Origin: Candidatus Poribacteria bacterium
GTDB lineage: Bacteria; Poribacteria; WGA-4E; GCA-2687025
DNA: 64,000 nt
Reading direction: 5' to 3'
Assembly: GCA_963665845.2 (NCBI GenBank)
Contig: OY762492.1
Coordinates: forward strand, 2,368,001-2,432,000
This document shows positions 213-10,228 of the stretch, in pieces. Each line of letters opens with the position of its first letter. Positions within the stretch are counted from its first letter, which is position 1. Position numbers and translations under genes: made by a program. The notes under the pieces are model-generated. The model did no database searches. It saw nothing but the letters and a program-made list of their open reading frames with translations, and was not told the DNA's origin.

Positions 213-1058
213 ATGGCGATGGAACGACAGCGGGTGTTGGTGACCGGCGCGCGCGGAGCCGTCGGAAGCGCTGCCGCGGAGGAGCTGCGCCGCCGCGGAC
301 ATTTTGTGCGCGGCTTTGATCTGCGCCCGATGGACAATGTGGACGAGGCGCATCTGGGCGATCTGGCAAATCGAGCCGCCGTCGAGACGGCGGTGGAAGG
401 CATGGACGCGGTTGTGCATCTCGCCGCGACGCCCGACGCCGCCGACTTTCTGACGATGCTGCTCCAGCCGAACATCGTCGGCGTCTATCAGGTTTTTGAG
501 GCGGTGAAGAGGCATGGCGTTCCGCGGCTCGTGTATGCCAGCACCGTTCAGACCGTCATGGGTCCGCTGCCGTCAGGGGCGCGGTTGAACATTCAGCGCG
601 GGGAAGGCGGGCTTTCCATCCCGACCGGTCCCGACAGGGGGCAGTTTGCGCCCGATTTTGGCGAGCGGCTCATTCGTCTTGAGGACGGAACGGGTCCGCC
701 GAACCATTACGCTGTAACAAAGCTGTTCGGCGAGGCGATGTGCGCGATGTACGCCCATCAATACGGCATATCGGTCGCGGCGGTGCGCCTCGGCTGGCTT
801 CCGCGCGCGCCGCATGACGTCGCCTCCATTGCGCAGCTGGAATGGGCGCAGAACATTTACTTTAGCCCAGGGGACGCGGGGCGGTTCTTCGCCCTCTGCG
901 TTGAGGCGCCCGACCTCCCGCCCGCCGCGACGCTGTTTGCGTCCAGCCGCCCCAAGACGCGGCCTGTTTTAGACCTGGAGCCGGCGCGAAAATGGATCGG
1001 TTATGAGCCGCAGGACACATGGCCCGAAGGCGCGCCGCATCCGGTTCCAGATGCATAA
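213..1058 (+). CDS. NAD-dependent epimerase/dehydratase (uronate dehydrogenase-like extended SDR)
   Basis: TGARGAVG Rossmann motif, VVHLAA, YAVTK catalytic motif, AAGGAG RBS upstream. Confidence 0.85.
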   Translation: MAMERQRVLVTGARGAVGSAAAEELRRRGHFVRGFDLRPMDNVDEAHLGDLANRAAVETAVEGMDAVVHLAATPDAADFLTMLLQPNIVGVYQVFEAVKRHGVPRLVYASTVQTVMGPLPSGARLNIQRGEGGLSIPTGPDRGQFAPDFGERLIRLEDGTGPPNHYAVTKLFGEAMCAMYAHQYGISVAAVRLGWLPRAPHDVASIAQLEWAQNIYFSPGDAGRFFALCVEAPDLPPAATLFASSRPKTRPVLDLEPARKWIGYEPQDTWPEGAPHPVPDA

Positions 1059-2343
1059 CGGCATGGGCTGGGCGTTGGCGGCGCTGTTGAGCGCGGGGCT
1101 GTATGCGGGAGCGGAGCAGGCGCCGCAGGCATGGTGGCTTTTTTTAAAGGAGCCGCCTAGCGCCTCGTTTCGTTCCGCGGCGGAGGCGGTCGGCGCGTCT
1201 GTCCGAACCGAAAGCCGATGGCTGCGCGCGGTGAGCGTCTCGGCGACCGAACGGCAGCGGGAGACGCTGGCGCGTTTGCCGGGCGTTTTGCGGACGGCGC
1301 CCGTCGCGTCCTATCGGCGCGTTGTTCAGTTTCCCGTGGATCCGACTCATCTCCCGACGCGGCATGCGCAGCCTGACTTGATGAACGCGGAGGCGTTGAT
1401 GGAGGCGGGCTGGACAGGCGAAGGCGTCCGCGTCGGCATCTTGGACGCCGGCTTTCGGCTGACGCATCCCGCCTTTGAGCGCCTGCGCGTCGGAGCCGTC
1501 ATGGATGTCATTCATCAAGACCAGAATGTGGACGAGGAGCCGGGTCAAGACGACCCTGGCGAAGCCGCCCATGGAACCGCCATGCTGTCGATTGTGGCGG
1601 GGCTGGCGCCGAACGCGGAATACTACTTAGCCAAAACGGAAGACATACAGCGCAACGGGCGCGATTTTGAGTCGCATATTGAAGAAGATTACTGGGTTGA
1701 GGGGCTGGAGTGGTGCATCGAAAACGGGTGCGCGGTCGTCAACTCGTCGCTCAACTACGCGCTGGATTACGCTTTTGCGGAGATGGACGGGCAGACCTCC
1801 CCCGCGTCGTTGGCGGCGGCGGAAGCGATGCGCCGCGGCGCGTTGATTGTGAATTCCGCCGGGAACATCAACCGCTACAACCCGTTTGGGCGCATCGCGC
1901 CGCCCGCCGATTCGGTCGGCGTCTTCACGGTCGGCGCGGCGCTTTCGAACGGGGAGCCTGCCGCATTTTCCTCAAAAGGACCGACGGGGGACGGGCGTCT
2001 CAAGCCGGACGCGCTCGCGCTGGGCGTCGGCGTCTCTGCCGCCGCGTTGGACGGGGAAGGGTTTCGGCTGGCGCGGGGTACCTCCGCGGCGTCCGCGTTG
2101 ACAGCGGGGGCTGCCGCGCTGTTGGTTGAAGCGTTTCCGTCCGCCTCTCCCGCCGAGATGATGAACGCGCTGCGCATGACCGCCTCAAACGCGGACGCGC
2201 CTGACAACCGAAGCGGATACGGCGTTTTGAACGCCGCGGAGGCGTATGAATATCTGCGCCGCGGGTTGAATCCAACCGATGCGGACGCGCCGAGCCGACC
2301 CGCCGCTGTTTTTCTCGCCGACCTGAAACGAGGCAGTTTATGA
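1051..2343 (+). CDS. Secreted S8 (subtilisin-like) serine peptidase
   Basis: Catalytic motifs VGILDAG, HGTAM, GTSAAS; VNSAGN oxyanion motif; hydrophobic signal peptide. Start is probably ATG 1051 or 1063 rather than 1003. Confidence 0.85.
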   Translation: MHNGMGWALAALLSAGLYAGAEQAPQAWWLFLKEPPSASFRSAAEAVGASVRTESRWLRAVSVSATERQRETLARLPGVLRTAPVASYRRVVQFPVDPTHLPTRHAQPDLMNAEALMEAGWTGEGVRVGILDAGFRLTHPAFERLRVGAVMDVIHQDQNVDEEPGQDDPGEAAHGTAMLSIVAGLAPNAEYYLAKTEDIQRNGRDFESHIEEDYWVEGLEWCIENGCAVVNSSLNYALDYAFAEMDGQTSPASLAAAEAMRRGALIVNSAGNINRYNPFGRIAPPADSVGVFTVGAALSNGEPAAFSSKGPTGDGRLKPDALALGVGVSAAALDGEGFRLARGTSAASALTAGAAALLVEAFPSASPAEMMNALRMTASNADAPDNRSGYGVLNAAEAYEYLRRGLNPTDADAPSRPAAVFLADLKRGSL

Positions 2344-3629
2344 AACGCATCGCCGCCGCATTGCTTCTTGCCGTTTTCGCCTCCGCCTGCGGAGATTCGC
2401 CGATTGATGAAGGATGGGAAGCGTATCGGCGGGAGGGACCTGAAAAGGCGCGCGAGGCGTTCCTCCGCCTAACGAAAGACCCGAAGAGAGCCGCCGACGC
2501 GGAGCTGGCGCTGGCGGAAATCGCCCTTGAACAGGACGAGCTGGAGGAGGCGAAAACCCGCTTTCAAAACGCCGCCGCAAAAAAAGAGCGGTTTGCGGAC
2601 GCATACGCCGGCTTGGGCGAGGCGCTGTACCGAATGGGTCGTCAAAAGGAGGCGTACGAGGTCTGGATACAGGCGCTGGAGCGGGAGCCTGACGGGTCGC
2701 ACACGGAGCGAATCGGCGCGATGACCGGCGGCGCGTACCATACAACCCGACTCACGCGAAACGGCGCCGACAGCTATTTCCCGCGCTTTCACCCTGACGG
2801 AAAAAGCGTCGTCTTCGCGTCGCACCAATATGAAAGCGGCGATCTTTACCTGCTCCGCTTGGAGGACATGGCGCTGGAGCGGCTGACCGAGATGGACGCC
2901 TCCAACGAAATCAGCCCCGTTTATTCGCCGGACGGCTCCGCGCTCATCTTTGCCGCGACGGAACATCGAACGGGCGTCGGCTACATCACGCTTCACGCCA
3001 GCGGCTCCTCCACGCGGCGCATTGTGCTGATGAAACGCGACTCTGCGGACGGCTCCGTCTCGCTTTTGACGCCGAACCCCAGCTCGGTCGCCAACCCTTA
3101 TCATCATCCGTCCGAGGCGCGCATCGCGTTTGAAGCGGCGGTGGAGGAGAATCTGGACATCTGGACGATGGACGTAGAGGGCGGGGGGCGGATTCGCCTG
3201 ACGACAGGTCCGGAAGACGACGGGTCGCCCGTCTACACGCCGGACGGAAGCTCCATTCTGTTTGTTCAAACGCAGGAGAACAATTTTGAGCTGATGCTCA
3301 TGAAGGCGGACGGGACGGAGCTTGAGCAGGCGACGCGGACGCCGTATAACGAGTTTGCGGGTTCGTTTTCGCCGGACGGGAGCCGGCTGGTTTATTTTCG
3401 GCAGCGCGATGCGTATGAGCTGGCGCTGATGGACTGGGAGACGCGGCGGTCGCGCGTGTTGTGCCGATTGAAAGGGGACGCGATGCAGCCGTCGTTTTCG
3501 CCGGACGGACAGCGCATCGTTTTTGTCAGCAACCAGAGCGACTACATGGAGCTGTATCTTCTGGATCTGTCGCAGCCTGTGCCGGGCGCGACGATATTGC
3601 GCCGTCTGCGTTCTCTGCTTGCATCATGA
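2340..3629 (+). CDS. Lipoprotein with TPR repeats and TolB-like PD40 beta-propeller
   Basis: Lipobox FASAC; TPR-like helices (AYAGLGEALYRMG); repeated PxFSPDG motifs; ATGA overlap with the upstream gene. Confidence 0.8.
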   Translation: MKRIAAALLLAVFASACGDSPIDEGWEAYRREGPEKAREAFLRLTKDPKRAADAELALAEIALEQDELEEAKTRFQNAAAKKERFADAYAGLGEALYRMGRQKEAYEVWIQALEREPDGSHTERIGAMTGGAYHTTRLTRNGADSYFPRFHPDGKSVVFASHQYESGDLYLLRLEDMALERLTEMDASNEISPVYSPDGSALIFAATEHRTGVGYITLHASGSSTRRIVLMKRDSADGSVSLLTPNPSSVANPYHHPSEARIAFEAAVEENLDIWTMDVEGGGRIRLTTGPEDDGSPVYTPDGSSILFVQTQENNFELMLMKADGTELEQATRTPYNEFAGSFSPDGSRLVYFRQRDAYELALMDWETRRSRVLCRLKGDAMQPSFSPDGQRIVFVSNQSDYMELYLLDLSQPVPGATILRRLRSLLAS

Positions 3630-3769: not shown

Positions 3770-3798
3770 TTGACATGCGTTTGGCGTCTTGGTATGGT
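3770..3798 (+). promoter_or_regulatory. Predicted sigma70 promoter P1 of the barrel-ExbBD operon
   Basis: TTGACA-17 bp-TATGGT with extended TG. Confidence 0.6.
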
Positions 3799-3872: not shown

Positions 3873-3901
3873 TTGACATGCGCCGAGCGTTTTGTTATTG
3901 T
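3873..3901 (+). promoter_or_regulatory. Predicted sigma70 promoter P2 of the barrel-ExbBD operon
   Basis: TTGACA-17 bp-TATTGT with extended TG. Shares GGTTGACATGCG with P1. Confidence 0.6.
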
Positions 3902-4013
3902 AAACTTGGTTTGCGGAGGATGCGGGCGTTTCAACGCGTTGCTTGACGCAATCATGAAATTTTGAACGAGCGAGGATACGCTCTTGAGAATCAAAACTTT
4001 AAGGACAGAACTT

Positions 4014-7000
4014 ATGAGAAAGACCGCTAAAGCGGCGCTTCCATGCCTGGGTCGGTGGACATTGGCGGCGTCGCTTGCATTGATAGGATTGGGGCTGATC
4101 GGGTGCGGCACAACGCCGTTCTCCGAGCTAGGCCCGCAGGAGCCGCTGTTGCCGGCAATTGAGGGGGAGTCGAAGTTCTCCGACCGCTTTGAGCTGGAAG
4201 AAATTCCTCATTTTTTCCATGATCTGTTCGGAAAAGAGCTGCTGGAGGGGCATGAGGTTCATCACTACGGGGAAGTGAAGAAGTTCGACAACACAGGCAA
4301 CTTGAACCTCGGTTTCAGCGGACAGTGGGAGACGCTCCGATTTGTTGTGGAGCTGGACCGCGAGGTTCTGACGCATGACACCTTTAGGGGCAGGCACGCG
4401 GAAGCGGCGATCGGAGATCATCTCCGCATTCTGCCGGAGACGCTCTTTCCCGCCGGGTACATCATCCGGAAAACGGAATTTGACGGGCAGCGGTTCGACA
4501 TCTCGTTCTCTCATGAGCGTCATCTGTTCACGCTTCTCAACACGCGCATGTCCAACACCATCTACAATATCCCTCTTGGTTTCCAGACGCTCAACGGCGC
4601 CGCCGGTCGACGAACCTCCACCGAGGACGTTGCCTTTCTCGCCAACTCCAGAATCATCGGTTTCCGAGCGCAGGGGCTGATCGGGGACATCTTCCGCGTC
4701 GGCGCGACGTATATAAACGTGCGCCAGGAGTTTCATCAGCGGACGCACAACCCGCTCTTCGGCTCCGTGCCGAACACGCCGCCGCAGGTCATCGTTGTCA
4801 CTTTCCGCGACGACTCGCCTGAAGACGGGCGCGTCGGAGCCGCCTTCCAGTCGATGGATGTCGTCATACGGTACCGAGAGGAATTGTATGACGTCGAAGT
4901 CATCACGGAGGACCCGAACACGGGCGAACCGCTGGAAGAACCGGTTGTCATCCGCGCGCCGCAGGAGTCCGAGGAGCAGACGCTCACATGGCAGGTCTTC
5001 TCCGACGATATGCGGGACGGCAATCTGACGGGAGATGTGCTGAACGGCGGATCGCCCGACCCGACCGTGACGACGGAGCTTCCCAGTTCCGACCCGCGCA
5101 TTGTTCGCAATGTCGGCGCGGACAACGCCGATTATCCGTACCTGGGCGACTGGCGGGTTGCAAACGGGTTTGACGCTTTTCATTACGCGCTGGATTTGAC
5201 CAATCTGCCGGATGCGGCTGCCAACGAGCTGGGAAGCTCGCTTTTGAACCCGGCGGTTGTCATCAGCGTTGAGTTCCAGAATATCAAGGTGGCGGGCGAC
5301 TACAACATCGTCATGAGCGGATACAGCCCTGGCAACGTCGGCGATGAAGACGGCGATCAGTTGCTCAATATGAACGGAAGCGGTCTCATCGTGATGCCGT
5401 ATCGCGACGTGATACAGGCGCCTGGAAACGTCGGTCAGGAGCAGGGTCAAGACCTGGACGTGTCCGATCCGAACGGGTGGAATCCGAAAACGATCGCGTC
5501 GCTGCAGTACGGCGCGCCGCGCTCCGCTGTCTTGGCGGGCGTGGACCTTGAAGGGACGATCGGCAATGTGCTGATTCGGGCGCAGTATTCGGTCAACAAC
5601 AAATACAAAGCGTATCCGACCGTCGACGAAGAACGCATCGATATTCTTCTTCTGCCGCAGGATTCAGGGATATCGAACGCGACCGTCGGAGACGCCGCCG
5701 ACTTCAAATACGACGAGGCGTCGGAGGGGAGAACCTTTTCCGCCAACAACGGCGCGGAGTTCAAATTCACGCCCGGCGGCGACAACCATGACTCCGCCGA
5801 GGTCGCCTGGTTCATCCAGCTTGAACACCGGCTTGGACGCATCCTGTTCAAAGAAGCGTTCTACCACATCGACCCAGGCTACACGACCAACTACCAGGGC
5901 TGGGGAAACAATGTGGACCGCGACGAGGTGTACGGCAACAACCCAGGCCCGTGGCGCGAAGCGAAAGACGAACCTGGTCCAGGAACGGAAGGTCCGGGCG
6001 TGGCGGCGGGGAACGGCTTCAATGCGGACATCTACCGCTTCGTTGAAGACGACGACGACCGCGACAGCTTTCCCGACAGCATCGACTTTGACGGAGTCCT
6101 TCCGCAAGCGGACGACCGCGACCAGAACGGCATTCTGGACTATCAGGAAGATTTCCTCATCTTCGACGCCGACCCGCCCATCTTTGACGACCTGGTCGAC
6201 CATGATAACAACGGCATCATCGACTCTCTCGAAGACGACTATGAGCCGGATTATGAGTACGGGATCGACCGGCGCGGCTACCATATTGAGGTGGCGTGGG
6301 ACATTTTTGAGAACATGACGACCACTTTCGGCTGGCTGAACGAGTCGGAAGTGTCCAGCGCGCGGCGCAACAACTCGCGCTATCTCCACTTCGATTTTCA
6401 GCGCGACATTGCCGAGCTCGGCACTTTCCGCCTGCAAGACCGTCTCCGCGTTGTGGACGACGACATCCCCGACTACTCCATCGCGCTGATCCCTGGAGCG
6501 CTTGGGGAGGCGCAGATAGAGGACCAGTTGGACTTCTACAACGCGACGGAAAACACGACGACGCTGCAGTTCCTCTACAACGCGATCAACAACCTGACGC
6601 TTGAGGGCAAGTATCTCTTCACGCTTGGGCGCCAGTCGCCGCCGTCGGATGAACGGCTGATCTTCCCGGACGACCCGGACACGCCCGACATTGATGAGCG
6701 CATCGACCTGATGGTGCCGCAGACGCAGGTGGATGTCGGCGGCGGGCAGAGAGATTACCCGTTCTATCCGGACCCGAATCTGATTTTCGACATCGACAAC
6801 TGGCAGGGGCGTCGATACGGGATTCAGAGCTACTGGGATGAAGACGGCAACATCATCACTGAAGAGGGCAAGACCCTCAATCAGCAGCTGCTCATTTTCC
6901 GCGCGCAGTATGAGATTCCGCTCAAGGAGATTGGCGGTCTGCAGAGCATCGTTGAGAGCATCAGCGAAGACATCGTCATCACGCCGGTGTATAAGTACAT

Positions 7001-7478
7001 TCTTGAGCGGAGTTCGGACCGAAGCCGCGACAGCCTTTACATCTCCCGCTTCAATCTGGGCGAGTTTGACAAAGGTACGCGGTTCGCGCTGGACCCGATC
7101 AATGTCAACCCCGGCGACGCGGAGAGCCGAGAGTATCTGCGCTTCAACAAGAACAGCCGCGAAATCGTCGAGGGCGTCCGCTTCGACTATCAGTTCACGC
7201 AGCGGGCGGCGATCGTCGCCGGCTTCCAGTACCGCAAGTTCATCAACAAGGACAAGGATTACCAGCGGTATCTGTCGGTCATTCCGGACGGGCAATCGTC
7301 GGCTCCGATCGAGTACCGCCCCGATTCGCGGACTCGAATCTTTGAGCTGCAGTTGATTCAGGAAGGCGACTGGCAAGGTTTTGTTGTGGCGATCCTGTCG
7401 GGTTTCCGCATCTACAAGGATGTTCTCAACAATGTTGCGAGCAACAGCACCTACATTCGCGCGATGACCGGTTTCTAA
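4014..7478 (+). CDS. Large uncharacterised lipoprotein, probable outer-membrane beta-barrel with Asp-rich Ca2+-binding loops
   Basis: Signal peptide with lipobox LIGC; many amphipathic strand pairs; DxDxNGxxD motifs; C-terminal YIRAMTGF ending in Phe. Start ATG 4014 (the ORF track gives TTG 3984). Confidence 0.7.
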   Translation: MRKTAKAALPCLGRWTLAASLALIGLGLIGCGTTPFSELGPQEPLLPAIEGESKFSDRFELEEIPHFFHDLFGKELLEGHEVHHYGEVKKFDNTGNLNLGFSGQWETLRFVVELDREVLTHDTFRGRHAEAAIGDHLRILPETLFPAGYIIRKTEFDGQRFDISFSHERHLFTLLNTRMSNTIYNIPLGFQTLNGAAGRRTSTEDVAFLANSRIIGFRAQGLIGDIFRVGATYINVRQEFHQRTHNPLFGSVPNTPPQVIVVTFRDDSPEDGRVGAAFQSMDVVIRYREELYDVEVITEDPNTGEPLEEPVVIRAPQESEEQTLTWQVFSDDMRDGNLTGDVLNGGSPDPTVTTELPSSDPRIVRNVGADNADYPYLGDWRVANGFDAFHYALDLTNLPDAAANELGSSLLNPAVVISVEFQNIKVAGDYNIVMSGYSPGNVGDEDGDQLLNMNGSGLIVMPYRDVIQAPGNVGQEQGQDLDVSDPNGWNPKTIASLQYGAPRSAVLAGVDLEGTIGNVLIRAQYSVNNKYKAYPTVDEERIDILLLPQDSGISNATVGDAADFKYDEASEGRTFSANNGAEFKFTPGGDNHDSAEVAWFIQLEHRLGRILFKEAFYHIDPGYTTNYQGWGNNVDRDEVYGNNPGPWREAKDEPGPGTEGPGVAAGNGFNADIYRFVEDDDDRDSFPDSIDFDGVLPQADDRDQNGILDYQEDFLIFDADPPIFDDLVDHDNNGIIDSLEDDYEPDYEYGIDRRGYHIEVAWDIFENMTTTFGWLNESEVSSARRNNSRYLHFDFQRDIAELGTFRLQDRLRVVDDDIPDYSIALIPGALGEAQIEDQLDFYNATENTTTLQFLYNAINNLTLEGKYLFTLGRQSPPSDERLIFPDDPDTPDIDERIDLMVPQTQVDVGGGQRDYPFYPDPNLIFDIDNWQGRRYGIQSYWDEDGNIITEEGKTLNQQLLIFRAQYEIPLKEIGGLQSIVESISEDIVITPVYKYILERSSDRSRDSLYISRFNLGEFDKGTRFALDPINVNPGDAESREYLRFNKNSREIVEGVRFDYQFTQRAAIVAGFQYRKFINKDKDYQRYLSVIPDGQSSAPIEYRPDSRTRIFELQLIQEGDWQGFVVAILSGFRIYKDVLNNVASNSTYIRAMTGF

Positions 7479-7527: not shown

Positions 7528-8117
7528 TGTCGCTTGAAGGCAGGCAATTGCGGAACGTTCTGATCATCATGATGCGCATATCGGCGGCGGCTCTATGGGT
7601 CGGCGCCGCCCATGCGCAGGTACAGACGTCGGCTCCAGCGGCGGCGCTGAGCGGCGTTGTGTTGAGTGTGAGAGACGGATCCGCGGTTGAAGGCGCGAAA
7701 ATGCATGCCGTTGCCGGCATCAAAGGCAGCGTCAAGGATGTAACGAAGGGAGGCGCGGCTGTCGAGGGCGCGACCGTCACGTACACGTACGTTGGGCTTC
7801 GCGCCGGTAAATCGGGCGAAGTCAAGAGCGACCAGAACGGCGAGTTTGAAATCTTTCCGCTTGCTCCCGGCGATTACTCTCTTAGCGTTGCGGCGGACAG
7901 GTATAAGGAACGCGATAACATCCTTCGCTCCGTCGTCTCTGGACAGACGACGGTCATCGAACTGAAAATGCGCAAAAAGACGACCATATTCCAGGCGCTA
8001 GGGAGGATGTACGGCGGGAATGGAGTTCTGGTCCTGCTGTTTTCCATTGCAGCGGTCGCTCTCATCTTTACGCTGACTGCGTCATGGCTCATACGAAAAG
8101 CGGAGAAGCAATCATGA
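7527..8117 (+). CDS. Membrane-anchored carboxypeptidase-regulatory-like (Ig/transthyretin-like fold) domain protein; truncated paralogue of the downstream ExbB N-terminus
   Basis: Signal peptide (AHA|Q), GIKGSVKD...GATV...SDQNGEFEI..LAPGDYSL motif, one C-terminal TM helix. Exact start uncertain. Confidence 0.7.
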   Translation: MSLEGRQLRNVLIIMMRISAAALWVGAAHAQVQTSAPAAALSGVVLSVRDGSAVEGAKMHAVAGIKGSVKDVTKGGAAVEGATVTYTYVGLRAGKSGEVKSDQNGEFEIFPLAPGDYSLSVAADRYKERDNILRSVVSGQTTVIELKMRKKTTIFQALGRMYGGNGVLVLLFSIAAVALIFTLTASWLIRKAEKQS

Positions 8118-8197
8118 ATCGATTTCTCAACAACAACGAAAACGCGGTTCGAGGATCGAACCGTTCAACCGTTTCAAACCTTATGGAGGCAAACCAA

Positions 8198-9250
8198 GTG
8201 CGTAAACTTCTTCCCGTCATCATGTCGGCGGCGCTGGCCATCTTCTGTCTCGGCGTTCAGGCGCAGGAAGCGACCGAGGATATCGGCGCCGACATGGGCA
8301 GCGAAATTGACATCGGCGGCGCCGGCCTGGACACGACCGTCAGCGAAACCGGCATCAAAGGCAGCATCAAGGATGTAACGCAGGGAGGCGCGGCAGTCAA
8401 CGGCGCGACCATCATGTATGTTGGGAACGACGTGACAGGCGAAGCCACGAGCGATCAGAACGGCGAGTTTGAAATCGGTCCGCTTGCCCCCGGCGAGTAC
8501 TCGCTCAAAGTGGTGGCGGACAATTTCCGGGACCGCGACGGCATCATTCGTACGGTCGTCGCCGGACAGATGACGATCATCGAAGTGAAAATGCGCGAAA
8601 AGACGACCCTGCTCGTGTTCGCAAGGCGGTTCGGATGGGTCGGCATTCCGCTGCTGCTCTGCTCCATCGCGGCGGTGACGTTCATCATTGAGCGCATCTT
8701 CACCTACGTGAAGCTGAACTCCGGCACCGAGGCGCTTCTTCACCGCGTGGATGAGGCGCTGGAGCATGACGATGTCAACGAAGCGCAGCAGGCGTGCGAT
8801 GAGGTGGGGACGCCGATTGCGAACGTTCTCAAGAGCGGATTGACCCGCTATAGCGCGGGGCTGGTGCGAAATGAGCCGCCGACAAAGAACGAGATACAGG
8901 AGATGATGCAGGAAGGCGCCGCCCGCGAGCTGCCCGAATTTGAGAACAACCTGACCTGGTTGTCGATGATTGCAGTGGTCTCTCCGCTGTTTGGGCTGCT
9001 GGGTACGGTGCTGGGGATGATCCGCGCGTTCACGGTGATCGCGTTGGAAGGCACAAACGACCCGAACCAGCTGGCTGACGGGATTTCGGTCGCTCTCTAC
9101 ACGACAGCGGCGGGTCTCTCGATTGCCGCTCCTGCGCTGGTGTTCTACGCGATTTTCGAAAACATCGTCAACAAGAACACCCTCCGCATTGAAGATGCGG
9201 CTTCGAATTTGGCAAACAAACTGACCGCATCCGACGCTGCGGCCAGCTAA
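8198..9250 (+). CDS. MotA/TolQ/ExbB proton channel protein with N-terminal periplasmic carboxypeptidase-regulatory-like domain
   Basis: SPLFGLLGTVLGMIRAF and GISVALYTTAAGL motifs. GTG start at 8198 after GGAGG gives a signal peptide (VQA|Q). Confidence 0.9.
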   Translation: MRKLLPVIMSAALAIFCLGVQAQEATEDIGADMGSEIDIGGAGLDTTVSETGIKGSIKDVTQGGAAVNGATIMYVGNDVTGEATSDQNGEFEIGPLAPGEYSLKVVADNFRDRDGIIRTVVAGQMTIIEVKMREKTTLLVFARRFGWVGIPLLLCSIAAVTFIIERIFTYVKLNSGTEALLHRVDEALEHDDVNEAQQACDEVGTPIANVLKSGLTRYSAGLVRNEPPTKNEIQEMMQEGAARELPEFENNLTWLSMIAVVSPLFGLLGTVLGMIRAFTVIALEGTNDPNQLADGISVALYTTAAGLSIAAPALVFYAIFENIVNKNTLRIEDAASNLANKLTASDAAAS

Positions 9251-9320: not shown

Positions 9321-9767
9321 ATGTATGATGAAAATCAAACCCAAGCTACCGCCCGCAAATCGCGGCGGGAGCCTGCAGTGGACATGACGCCGATGATCGA
9401 TTGCGTGTTTCTGTTGATCATCTTTTTCATGCTGGCGACCACCTTCTCGCCGCTGCCTGGCATCCAGGTCAAACTGCCGCCCCCGTCCAATGCGCCGACG
9501 CCGCCGGAGCAGAAAAACTTCATCCTGGTGATATCGAACCCAGAAGGGGGCGCATCGGAAGGCATCATGCTACTGAACGATAGTGGAGTGAGCATGAGCG
9601 ACCTGTCGGTCAGCTTTATGGGCGGCACCGAGGAGCAAAAAGAGACGCTCATCATCCGCTCCGGACGGCGCGTGAAGCATGAGCAGATCGTGACCGTGAT
9701 GGACAAGGCGAAACGCGCCGGCATCAAAAAAATCGGATTTGCAATGGTTGCAAGCTCCTTATATTGA
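9321..9767 (+). CDS. exbD: Biopolymer transporter ExbD/TolR family
   Basis: MTPMIDCVFLLIIFFM TM motif with conserved Asp; C-terminal VMDKAKRAGIKKIGF. Confidence 0.9.
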   Translation: MYDENQTQATARKSRREPAVDMTPMIDCVFLLIIFFMLATTFSPLPGIQVKLPPPSNAPTPPEQKNFILVISNPEGGASEGIMLLNDSGVSMSDLSVSFMGGTEEQKETLIIRSGRRVKHEQIVTVMDKAKRAGIKKIGFAMVASSLY

Positions 9768-9820: not shown

Positions 9821-10228
9821 GTGAGATTAAAAAAACCGAGGGAGAAACAGCCTCCCAAGCTGGTCATGGAGCCGCTGGTTGACTGCGTCTTCCTTCTGCT
9901 CATCTTCTTTATGGTGGCGAACATTCTGAAGCCCACCTTGCCGTTCACCGTTGAACTGCCGGATTCCAAGTCCCGCGAGGAGTATGTCCGCAAAAAGTTC
10001 AACGTGTACATCAACGCGAACGGGCAGATGTCCGTTGACGACCAGGCGATGCAGGACTATGACGCTCTGGAAAAATACCTGCTGACGCGCGCGAACGAAA
10101 TCGAGGTGCTGATGATCCACGCCGACAAGAACACGAAGCATGGAGATGTGATCGACGCGATGGAACGCGCCAAACGCGCCACGCTCGACAATATCGCCTT
10201 TGTGCTGTCGGACGAGGAGATCGAGTAG
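9821..10228 (+). CDS. exbD: Second ExbD/TolR family protein
   Basis: MEPLVDCVFLLLIFFM, VELP, IHADKNTKHGDVIDAM. Confidence 0.9.
   Translation: MRLKKPREKQPPKLVMEPLVDCVFLLLIFFMVANILKPTLPFTVELPDSKSREEYVRKKFNVYINANGQMSVDDQAMQDYDALEKYLLTRANEIEVLMIHADKNTKHGDVIDAMERAKRATLDNIAFVLSDEEIE

Follow-up and report, generated by a model that had tools for sequence, protein, structure and literature searches.

Which function can be assigned to a large outer-membrane (OM) β-barrel that matches no known family and lies directly in front of an ExbB/ExbD motor? This question is raised by a gene at 4014..7478 on the plus strand of a 64,000-nt stretch (the window) of a Candidatus Poribacteria genome (assembly GCA_963665845.2, contig OY762492.1, positions 2,368,001 to 2,432,000). 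ORF calling, homologue alignment and AlphaFold2 predict that it encodes a lipidated OM barrel of 1,154 aa with ~24 strands. A first-pass annotation had proposed a lipid-anchored OM barrel with Ca2+-stabilized extracellular domains and overlooked the central feature, a conserved linkage of the gene with an ExbB/ExbD motor and with type IX cargo. In relatives from several phyla, the barrel is accompanied by surface proteins and a TonB-like arm, and together these likely form an undescribed energy-driven uptake or surface-display machine. Our favored, still tentative reading is that the barrel is the gated receptor or importer of a proton-powered uptake machine, SusC-like with secreted lids and not a TonB-dependent receptor.

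Two independent AlphaFold2 models, one of the window’s barrel (mean pLDDT 85.5, pTM 0.86) and one of a distant relative (mean pLDDT 82.9, pTM 0.83), agree with the proposed OM barrel, and the fold-search matches are all membrane barrels. Both models predict 24 long strands, or 26 if an N-terminal hairpin joins the wall. Strands were counted with DSSP, using the alternation of long strands from the C-terminus and no coordinates. By this count, the inserted β-sandwich, the acidic block and all further long loops have their roots on the outer face, in line with the proposed extracellular domains. They may nevertheless partly fill the lumen, since comparable metal-binding insertions of SlpA are described as folding into its pore (PMC9388160). 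All strings quoted in the first-pass annotation lie at the expected places in the 1,154-aa ORF, with hairpins at residues 217–236, 507–525, 598–623 and 755–775, acidic motifs at 678–688, 700–713 and 729–742 and the C-terminal Y-x-R-x-x-x-G-F at 1147–1154. The large insertion noted earlier is likewise present, but with 270 aa instead of ~260 aa. The β-sandwich domain, predicted at residues ~237–500 (4722..5513, plus strand), matched no known family when searched alone.

The earlier impression of an unrecognized family held, as the barrel had no Pfam, NCBIfam or PDB sequence match and no strong full-length match to a characterized family. A profile of distant homologues did not match the PDB either. 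Fold searches returned generic membrane barrels only, with a best TM of 0.28, a result that speaks for the families covered by the search. The TonB_dep_Rec barrel and plug profile gave 0 matches in the barrel and 43 homologues versus 11 elsewhere in the host genome, and only ~45 residues precede the first strand, compared with a ~150-residue plug and 22 strands in a TonB-dependent transporter. A PorV/PorP profile, representing a ~300-aa FadL-like barrel, matched a separate neighboring gene and not the large barrel. For LptD, there was no Pfam or NCBIfam match, no N-terminal jellyroll domain in the model and a TM of at most 0.2. Ushers fit in their 24-strand count and inserted sandwich, but the barrel lacks their periplasmic terminal domains and a profile match, and Z reaches 8–10 only. 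Shared strand motifs noticed by eye had suggested homology to SprA, which was rejected: the barrel (1,154 aa versus >2,000 aa) has no NCBIfam match to the SprA/Sov model TIGR04189, and the profile–profile probability from hhalign is ≤2%.

An acidic block at residues 678–748 (6045..6257, plus strand) contains near-invariant Asp and Asn, with ~20 acidic or Asn positions in 678–746 remaining D, N or E in >90% of 76 distant homologues. The densest 75-residue segment of the barrel holds 24 Asp, compared with a maximum of 20 across 2,000 shuffles, and two D-x-[DN]-x-[DN]-G motifs occur, a number attained in 43 of the 2,000 shuffles, which average 0.22; both values exceed chance. Judged from the near-invariant residues, the Ca2+ binding earlier proposed for these motifs is plausible; a thrombospondin-type Pfam match was sought in the barrel protein and none was found. 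The signal peptide, assigned from lipobox conservation and the homologue alignment, ends in Cys31 (4014..4106, plus strand). The lipobox pattern is present in 119 of 120 close homologues versus 2 of 78 distant ones, which argues for the lipid anchor claimed earlier. Similarly, the last strand (7452..7475, plus strand) carries a BAM-type signal with a Gly-Phe end that is shared by 118 of the 120 close homologues, and a Phe end occurs in 10 of the 78 distant ones. As distant homologues mostly lack both, the predicted lipidation and the terminal Phe are traits of the Poribacteria branch and not of the whole family. Between the signal peptide and the first strand, a strongly conserved N-terminal segment (4107..4241, plus strand), modeled at low pLDDT, is a candidate plug or contact for an energizing arm.

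The search for close homologues yielded 318 matches, of which the best 120 listed share 42–88% identity, the named ones being hypothetical proteins of Candidatus Poribacteria. A strong match was obtained in 80 of 81 Poribacteria genomes, with a weak, paralogue-type match only in the remaining one, and many genomes carry two full-length copies. The barrel gene is thus a core Poribacteria gene. Distant full-length relatives of 740–1,050 aa were found in records labeled Ignavibacteria, Kryptonia, KSB1, Zixibacteria, Marinimicrobia, Latescibacterota and Gemmatimonadota; the best 80 of 313 confirmed matches formed our sample from other phyla, giving 80 loci, 54 of them with long flanks. Among Ignavibacteria-type genomes the distribution is patchy. 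In a FastTree tree of 66 rows, Poribacteria formed a clade with a support of 100, while a second host paralogue on a long branch was not reliably placed. This non-lipidated paralogue of 778 aa (C1:1506958-1509336) is separated from a nearby PorV/PorP-like gene by an inserted ORF that resembles a DNA methyltransferase.

In the window, the genes behind the barrel encode a motor subunit of the ExbB/TolQ family that carries a CarboxypepD_reg domain at its N-terminus (8114..9250, true start probably later; Pfam, NCBIfam and profile matches) and two ExbD/TolR subunits that keep the membrane Asp (9321..9767 and 9821..10228; Pfam), all on the plus strand. No TonB gene was found among these motor genes. 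The intervening frame on the same strand (7566..8117, start uncertain, 7527 or 7566), with a CarboxypepD_reg domain and one membrane helix, is, judged by Pfam and neighbor comparison, a second copy of the front portion of ExbB; such duplicates were also found at two further loci. A barrel followed by ExbB and ExbD occurs in 17 of 21 Poribacteria loci, the exceptions being three motor-less second copies and one contig end. Moreover, the window’s ExbB matches the profile of its relatives’ operon ExbB with 169 bits, better than the other ExbB (102 bits). In the most distant Poribacteria family, the barrel gene is separated from ExbB by a gene for a TPR protein of 1,478 aa, whose host orthologue is located elsewhere. 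Bacterial microcompartment and PduL genes also adjoin the barrel locus in many Poribacteria (seven loci), a link that is not essential because the window’s copy is without it.

Loci from other phyla revealed further partners. Across the 80 loci, the recurring order comprised a type B C-terminal domain (CTD) protein with an F5/8 domain, a PorV/PorP-like barrel, the large barrel, a ~1,045-aa TPR protein, ExbB, ExbD, DUF4159 proteins and lipoproteins. Among the 54 long-flank loci, TPR genes were present in all 54, membrane-anchored DUF4159 in 50, a strict-motif CTD protein in 40, a PorV/PorP-like gene in 39, ExbB in 33 and ExbD in 31. In the long DUF4159 proteins, an extended linker connects one N-terminal membrane helix to the DUF4159 head, the layout described for TonB/TolA-type force transducers (PMC12204202). 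Their helix contains an invariant His with Ser or Ala four residues before it, (S/A)-x-x-x-H, a pattern also seen in seven of nine long Poribacteria DUF4159 frames looked at. In a sample of 151 genomes of the Bacteroidota phylum, the long form was restricted to the same four genomes as the barrel, where it adjoins the barrel, and was found in 0 of the remaining 147; 104 other genomes had shorter-match DUF4159 proteins only. The host encodes two TonB-like proteins with a DUF4159 head (C1:3321233-3322612 and C1:1612042-1613580). Many Poribacteria genomes carry multiple long forms of this kind.

The CTD proteins lead to the type IX system. The host contains a divergent SprA-like protein of 2,225 aa (C1:935094-941771), 57 CTD-like domains and at least seven PorV/PorP-like genes, and its ~90% complete genome gave no GldM match. 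The SprA-like protein and the CTD-like domains, together with the missing GldM match, argue for a GldLM-less type IX-like system in Poribacteria. All 80 barrel-bearing genomes tested gave a SprA match, among them the 30 Poribacteria examined, whose matches lie below the curated cut-off. GldM matches were obtained in 0 of 80, with a search that does match GldM in 38 of the 151 Bacteroidota-phylum genomes. In that sample, 82 genomes had SprA without GldM and four of these, one a center chosen for the barrel, carried the barrel. Because of this low proportion, we regard the barrel as an accessory module and not as a general type IX engine; a general replacement of GldLM by the barrel is largely refuted by the same sample.

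The barrel family is expanded in Latescibacterota. Three genomes contained 53, 28 and 43 barrel matches, compared with a single match in a KSB1 genome and likewise in an Ignavibacteriales genome. In the three, the TonB-dependent receptor matches (26, 14 and 22) were fewer than the barrels. Long DUF4159 arms are likewise multiplied in these expanded genomes. We sampled 20 loci with 21 of the 53 copies from one genome. High-scoring, mostly single copies away from DUF4159 clusters were picked, and the absence of motor genes at these loci is, therefore, partly by choice. A CTD protein was encoded within 100 bp on the same strand for 20 of the 21 copies, with two to three per locus and the type B motif on most of these CTDs. 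No PorP-like gene was detected in the 20 loci; 16 of them encode a peptidyl-prolyl isomerase (PPIase) lipoprotein and 10 encode a DUF6785 membrane protein. The CTD adjacency, our strongest functional clue, suggests that the barrel behaves as a cognate OM partner of type B CTD surface proteins. Many of the loci also encode a ~300-aa secreted protein without a Pfam match but with a short conserved tail, and similar tails end many host proteins. A host PPIase akin to those beside the Latescibacterota barrels lies just outside the window, ~10 kb upstream of the barrel (C1:2360008-2361978). Two DUF6785-like membrane genes flank a PorV/PorP-like gene in the host (C1:1216245-1221206), and further DUF6785 copies lie near a TonB-dependent receptor and near a CTD protein.

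Published transcriptome data from a sponge symbiont provide expression values. The text of that study describes the barrel region as BMC-A, read as vitamin B12 uptake, with the gene given only as a hypothetical protein (PMC5087111). In its supplement, a 3,402-nt gene between ExbB and a Wzz-like gene, the likely orthologue, is expressed at 3.0x housekeeping level (row 55 of 4,771), ExbB at 4.9x and the ExbDs at 3.3x and 2.6x. A 1,290-nt DUF4159 gene reaches 33.8x, the second of ~4,769, and the highest pfam03544 TonB row is at 0.65x. The ‘outer-membrane RhoGEF’ of the same study is a different gene of 1,596 nt. RNA-run contigs of two studies span parts of the barrel and motor genes in related strains; they were not counted, as level and co-transcription are not readable from contigs.

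The fold model, motifs, gene order, copy numbers and published expression are directly supported, and from them we infer a sequence of steps for the proposed uptake machine. First, BAM would insert the barrel, and bound metal would stiffen the acidic loop. Surface proteins that combine a type B CTD with F5/8 domains of the carbohydrate-binding type would exit via SprA and attach to the barrel or next to it, where they would act as lids that capture substrate. The ExbB-ExbD-ExbD motor would then drive an inner-membrane arm in which the TonB-type S-x-x-x-H helix is followed by the extended linker and, instead of the TonB C-domain, by a DUF4159 head. Lastly, this arm, directly or via the long TPR protein, might pull the conserved N-terminal segment and thereby open the pore for a large substrate. 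We prefer energized uptake because one motor for many barrels, each with its own carbohydrate-binding-type surface proteins, follows the logic of Ton utilisomes.

Several observations weigh against this interpretation. In the barrel, neither a plug domain nor a TonB box was identified, and in Poribacteria one to two copies with very high expression fit a housekeeping function better than a substrate-specific role. CTD, TPR and DUF4159 genes are scattered in the host genome, with none beside the barrel, and only one host protein carries the type B motif. As the host has only two true ExbB genes for approximately ten TonB-dependent receptors and three TonB proteins, the motor may also serve ordinary Ton uptake. 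Elsewhere, ExbB is missing in 21 of the 54 long-flank loci. The recurring PPIase lipoprotein points to a role in protein handling as much as in nutrient uptake, few catabolic enzymes were detected among 49 neighbors scanned at Latescibacterota loci, and the assignment of DUF6785 as a transporter was not supported by the checks made. Furthermore, the genes in the transcriptome supplement were assigned solely from their position, their length and their Pfam label. The text of that study also gives a TonB gene at 1.7x (PMC5087111).

A close rival, only somewhat less probable than energized uptake and compatible with the same data, is that the barrel is a giant cognate protein that anchors or shuttles surface proteins bearing a type B CTD, as SprF/PorP does in Bacteroidota. 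The motor would then move, present or release these adhesin-like proteins. The myxobacterial Agl-Glt machine offers an analogy for adhesion or slow surface motility. Gene order favors this idea, as the Latescibacterota barrel sits directly behind the CTD gene in loci without a detected PorP-like gene, and the cognate shuttle gene of F. johnsoniae is reported in this same position (PMC12618676). PPIase and TPR neighbors are also compatible with it. In addition, one ExbB, two different ExbDs and TPR are described as marking vWA transducer loci with suggested gliding (PMC12204202). However, a PorV/PorP-like gene already follows the CTD gene in 59 of 80 loci (Ignavibacteria, KSB1 and others), which makes the large barrel an extra, and a 24-strand pore far exceeds the needs of an anchor.

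A less probable role is that of an abundant structural envelope protein, an SlpA-like scaffold or Tol-like tether that the motor would pull to hold the OM attached. Deinococcus SlpA was the best fold match in both models (Z 13.3–13.8, 368–400 residues aligned, r.m.s.d. 7.4–7.7), weak SlpA_C Pfam matches were obtained, and SlpA is reported to have Asp-bound metal insertions as well (PMC9388160). The barrel is also near-universal, predicted to be lipidated and highly expressed in Poribacteria. Several points speak against this role. The SlpA_C matches concern one ~80-residue stretch in 3 of 43 homologues and the paralogue and remain below cut-off (E 3e-4 to 0.02), and the Z-score of SlpA is barely above those of unrelated porins. 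There is no SLH match and no coiled coil, with no long helix before the barrel. A scaffold would also not need 28–53 paralogues, each with its own surface proteins, and the barrel is patchy in Ignavibacteria-type genomes.

We consider it very unlikely that the barrel is an OM porin for secreted polysaccharide, working with neighboring Wzz/polysaccharide co-polymerase (PCP) and outer-membrane polysaccharide export (OPX) proteins. Wzz/GNVR proteins are encoded in 9 of 21 and OPX/SLBB proteins in 5 of 21 Poribacteria loci, and a look-alike from the Atlas (score 0.88) belongs to DUF6029, which has been tied to polysaccharide export (PMC9603273). This score lies below 0.9, no such cluster recurs among the neighbors of the 80 loci from other phyla and none lies beside the window’s copy. 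In the transcriptome supplement, the Wzz-like gene is at 0.15x, 20-fold below the barrel (PMC5087111). Most improbable of all is a general energizing partner or alternative translocon of the type IX system in GldLM-less lineages, to which the SprA match and missing GldM in all 80 barrel-bearing genomes and the host’s SprA-like protein and CTD-like domains might point, given the barrel’s presence in only 4 of 82 SprA-bearing, GldM-less genomes and the negligible profile–profile probability with SprA.

Upstream of the barrel gene, two sigma-70-like promoters, each with a perfect −35 and an extended −10 element, are predicted on the plus strand at 3770..3798 (10 of 12 matches) and 3873..3901 from consensus matches only; four such sites in the region compare with 2.4 expected, a count that is not significant. 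A TTG at 3984 is present, yet homologue alignments begin at the ATG at 4014. The region at 1003-3629 encodes a subtilase followed by a lipoprotein with TPR and a PD40 propeller (TolB/PorE-like), which lie beside the barrel only in the same genus. Elsewhere in the host, a cluster of three MotA/MotB-like pairs (C1:1316798-1326777) presumably resembles Zorya defense genes.

How does the proposed uptake machine relate to described systems? Its motor is of a known kind, and no described family or system corresponds to the barrel, the arm or their pairing with type IX cargo; in the literature searched, with most subscription papers outside its reach, neither the barrel family nor the DUF4159 arm was described. 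With Ton systems, TonB-dependent transporters and SusC/SusD utilisomes, it shares gene-linked ExbB/ExbD motor subunits, the TonB-type helix motif of the arm, a large barrel and paralogue expansion with locus-specific surface proteins. Unlike these, the barrel has ~24 instead of 22 strands, no TonB-receptor Pfam match and no recognizable plug, the arm ends in DUF4159 and not TonB_C, and the surface partners are type IX cargo instead of lipoproteins. As described for F. johnsoniae PorP/SprF, the barrel gene immediately follows the gene of a type B CTD protein, and such cognate sets are repeated, whereas the barrel is ~3x larger, unrelated in sequence and tied to ExbBD, not to GldKLMN or PorE (PMC12618676). 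vWA-headed transducers likewise combine TPR, one ExbB/TolQ, two different ExbD/TolR and a non-TonB head on a TonB-like arm; their head is not DUF4159, a term absent from the main text describing them (PMC12204202), and the present system adds an OM barrel and type IX cargo. Abundance, large size and Asp-rich insertions, which bind metal in SlpA and are predicted to do so here, are common to the barrel and Deinococcus SlpA, but the latter has 30 strands, SLH and coiled-coil regions and no such motor link, and superposes with an r.m.s.d. >7 (PMC9388160). Like the SprA/Sov translocon, with which it co-occurs in every barrel-bearing genome tested, the barrel is large and carries inserted domains, but it is half the size, has no significant profile match and coexists with a separate SprA.

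With somewhat greater reservation than for the importer role itself, we propose that these genes may define a second class of energized OM transporters outside the TonB-dependent receptor fold. It would comprise a ~24-strand metal-stabilized barrel, ExbBD, a DUF4159 arm and TPR, be fed by surface binding proteins that reach it through a GldLM-less type IX system, and exist as a core system in Poribacteria and as dozens of substrate-specific copies in Latescibacterota. In a major sponge symbiont, the likely orthologue of the barrel gene ranks among the most expressed envelope genes (PMC5087111 supplement), and relatives labeled Ignavibacterium album and Kryptonia may make the question testable. 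If true, a separate barrel family that is wired to this kind of motor by another arm would broaden the current picture, DUF4159 would gain a role, type IX cargo would be explained in phyla without a gliding motor and, in the expanded Latescibacterota, the energized barrel would outnumber TonB-dependent receptors.

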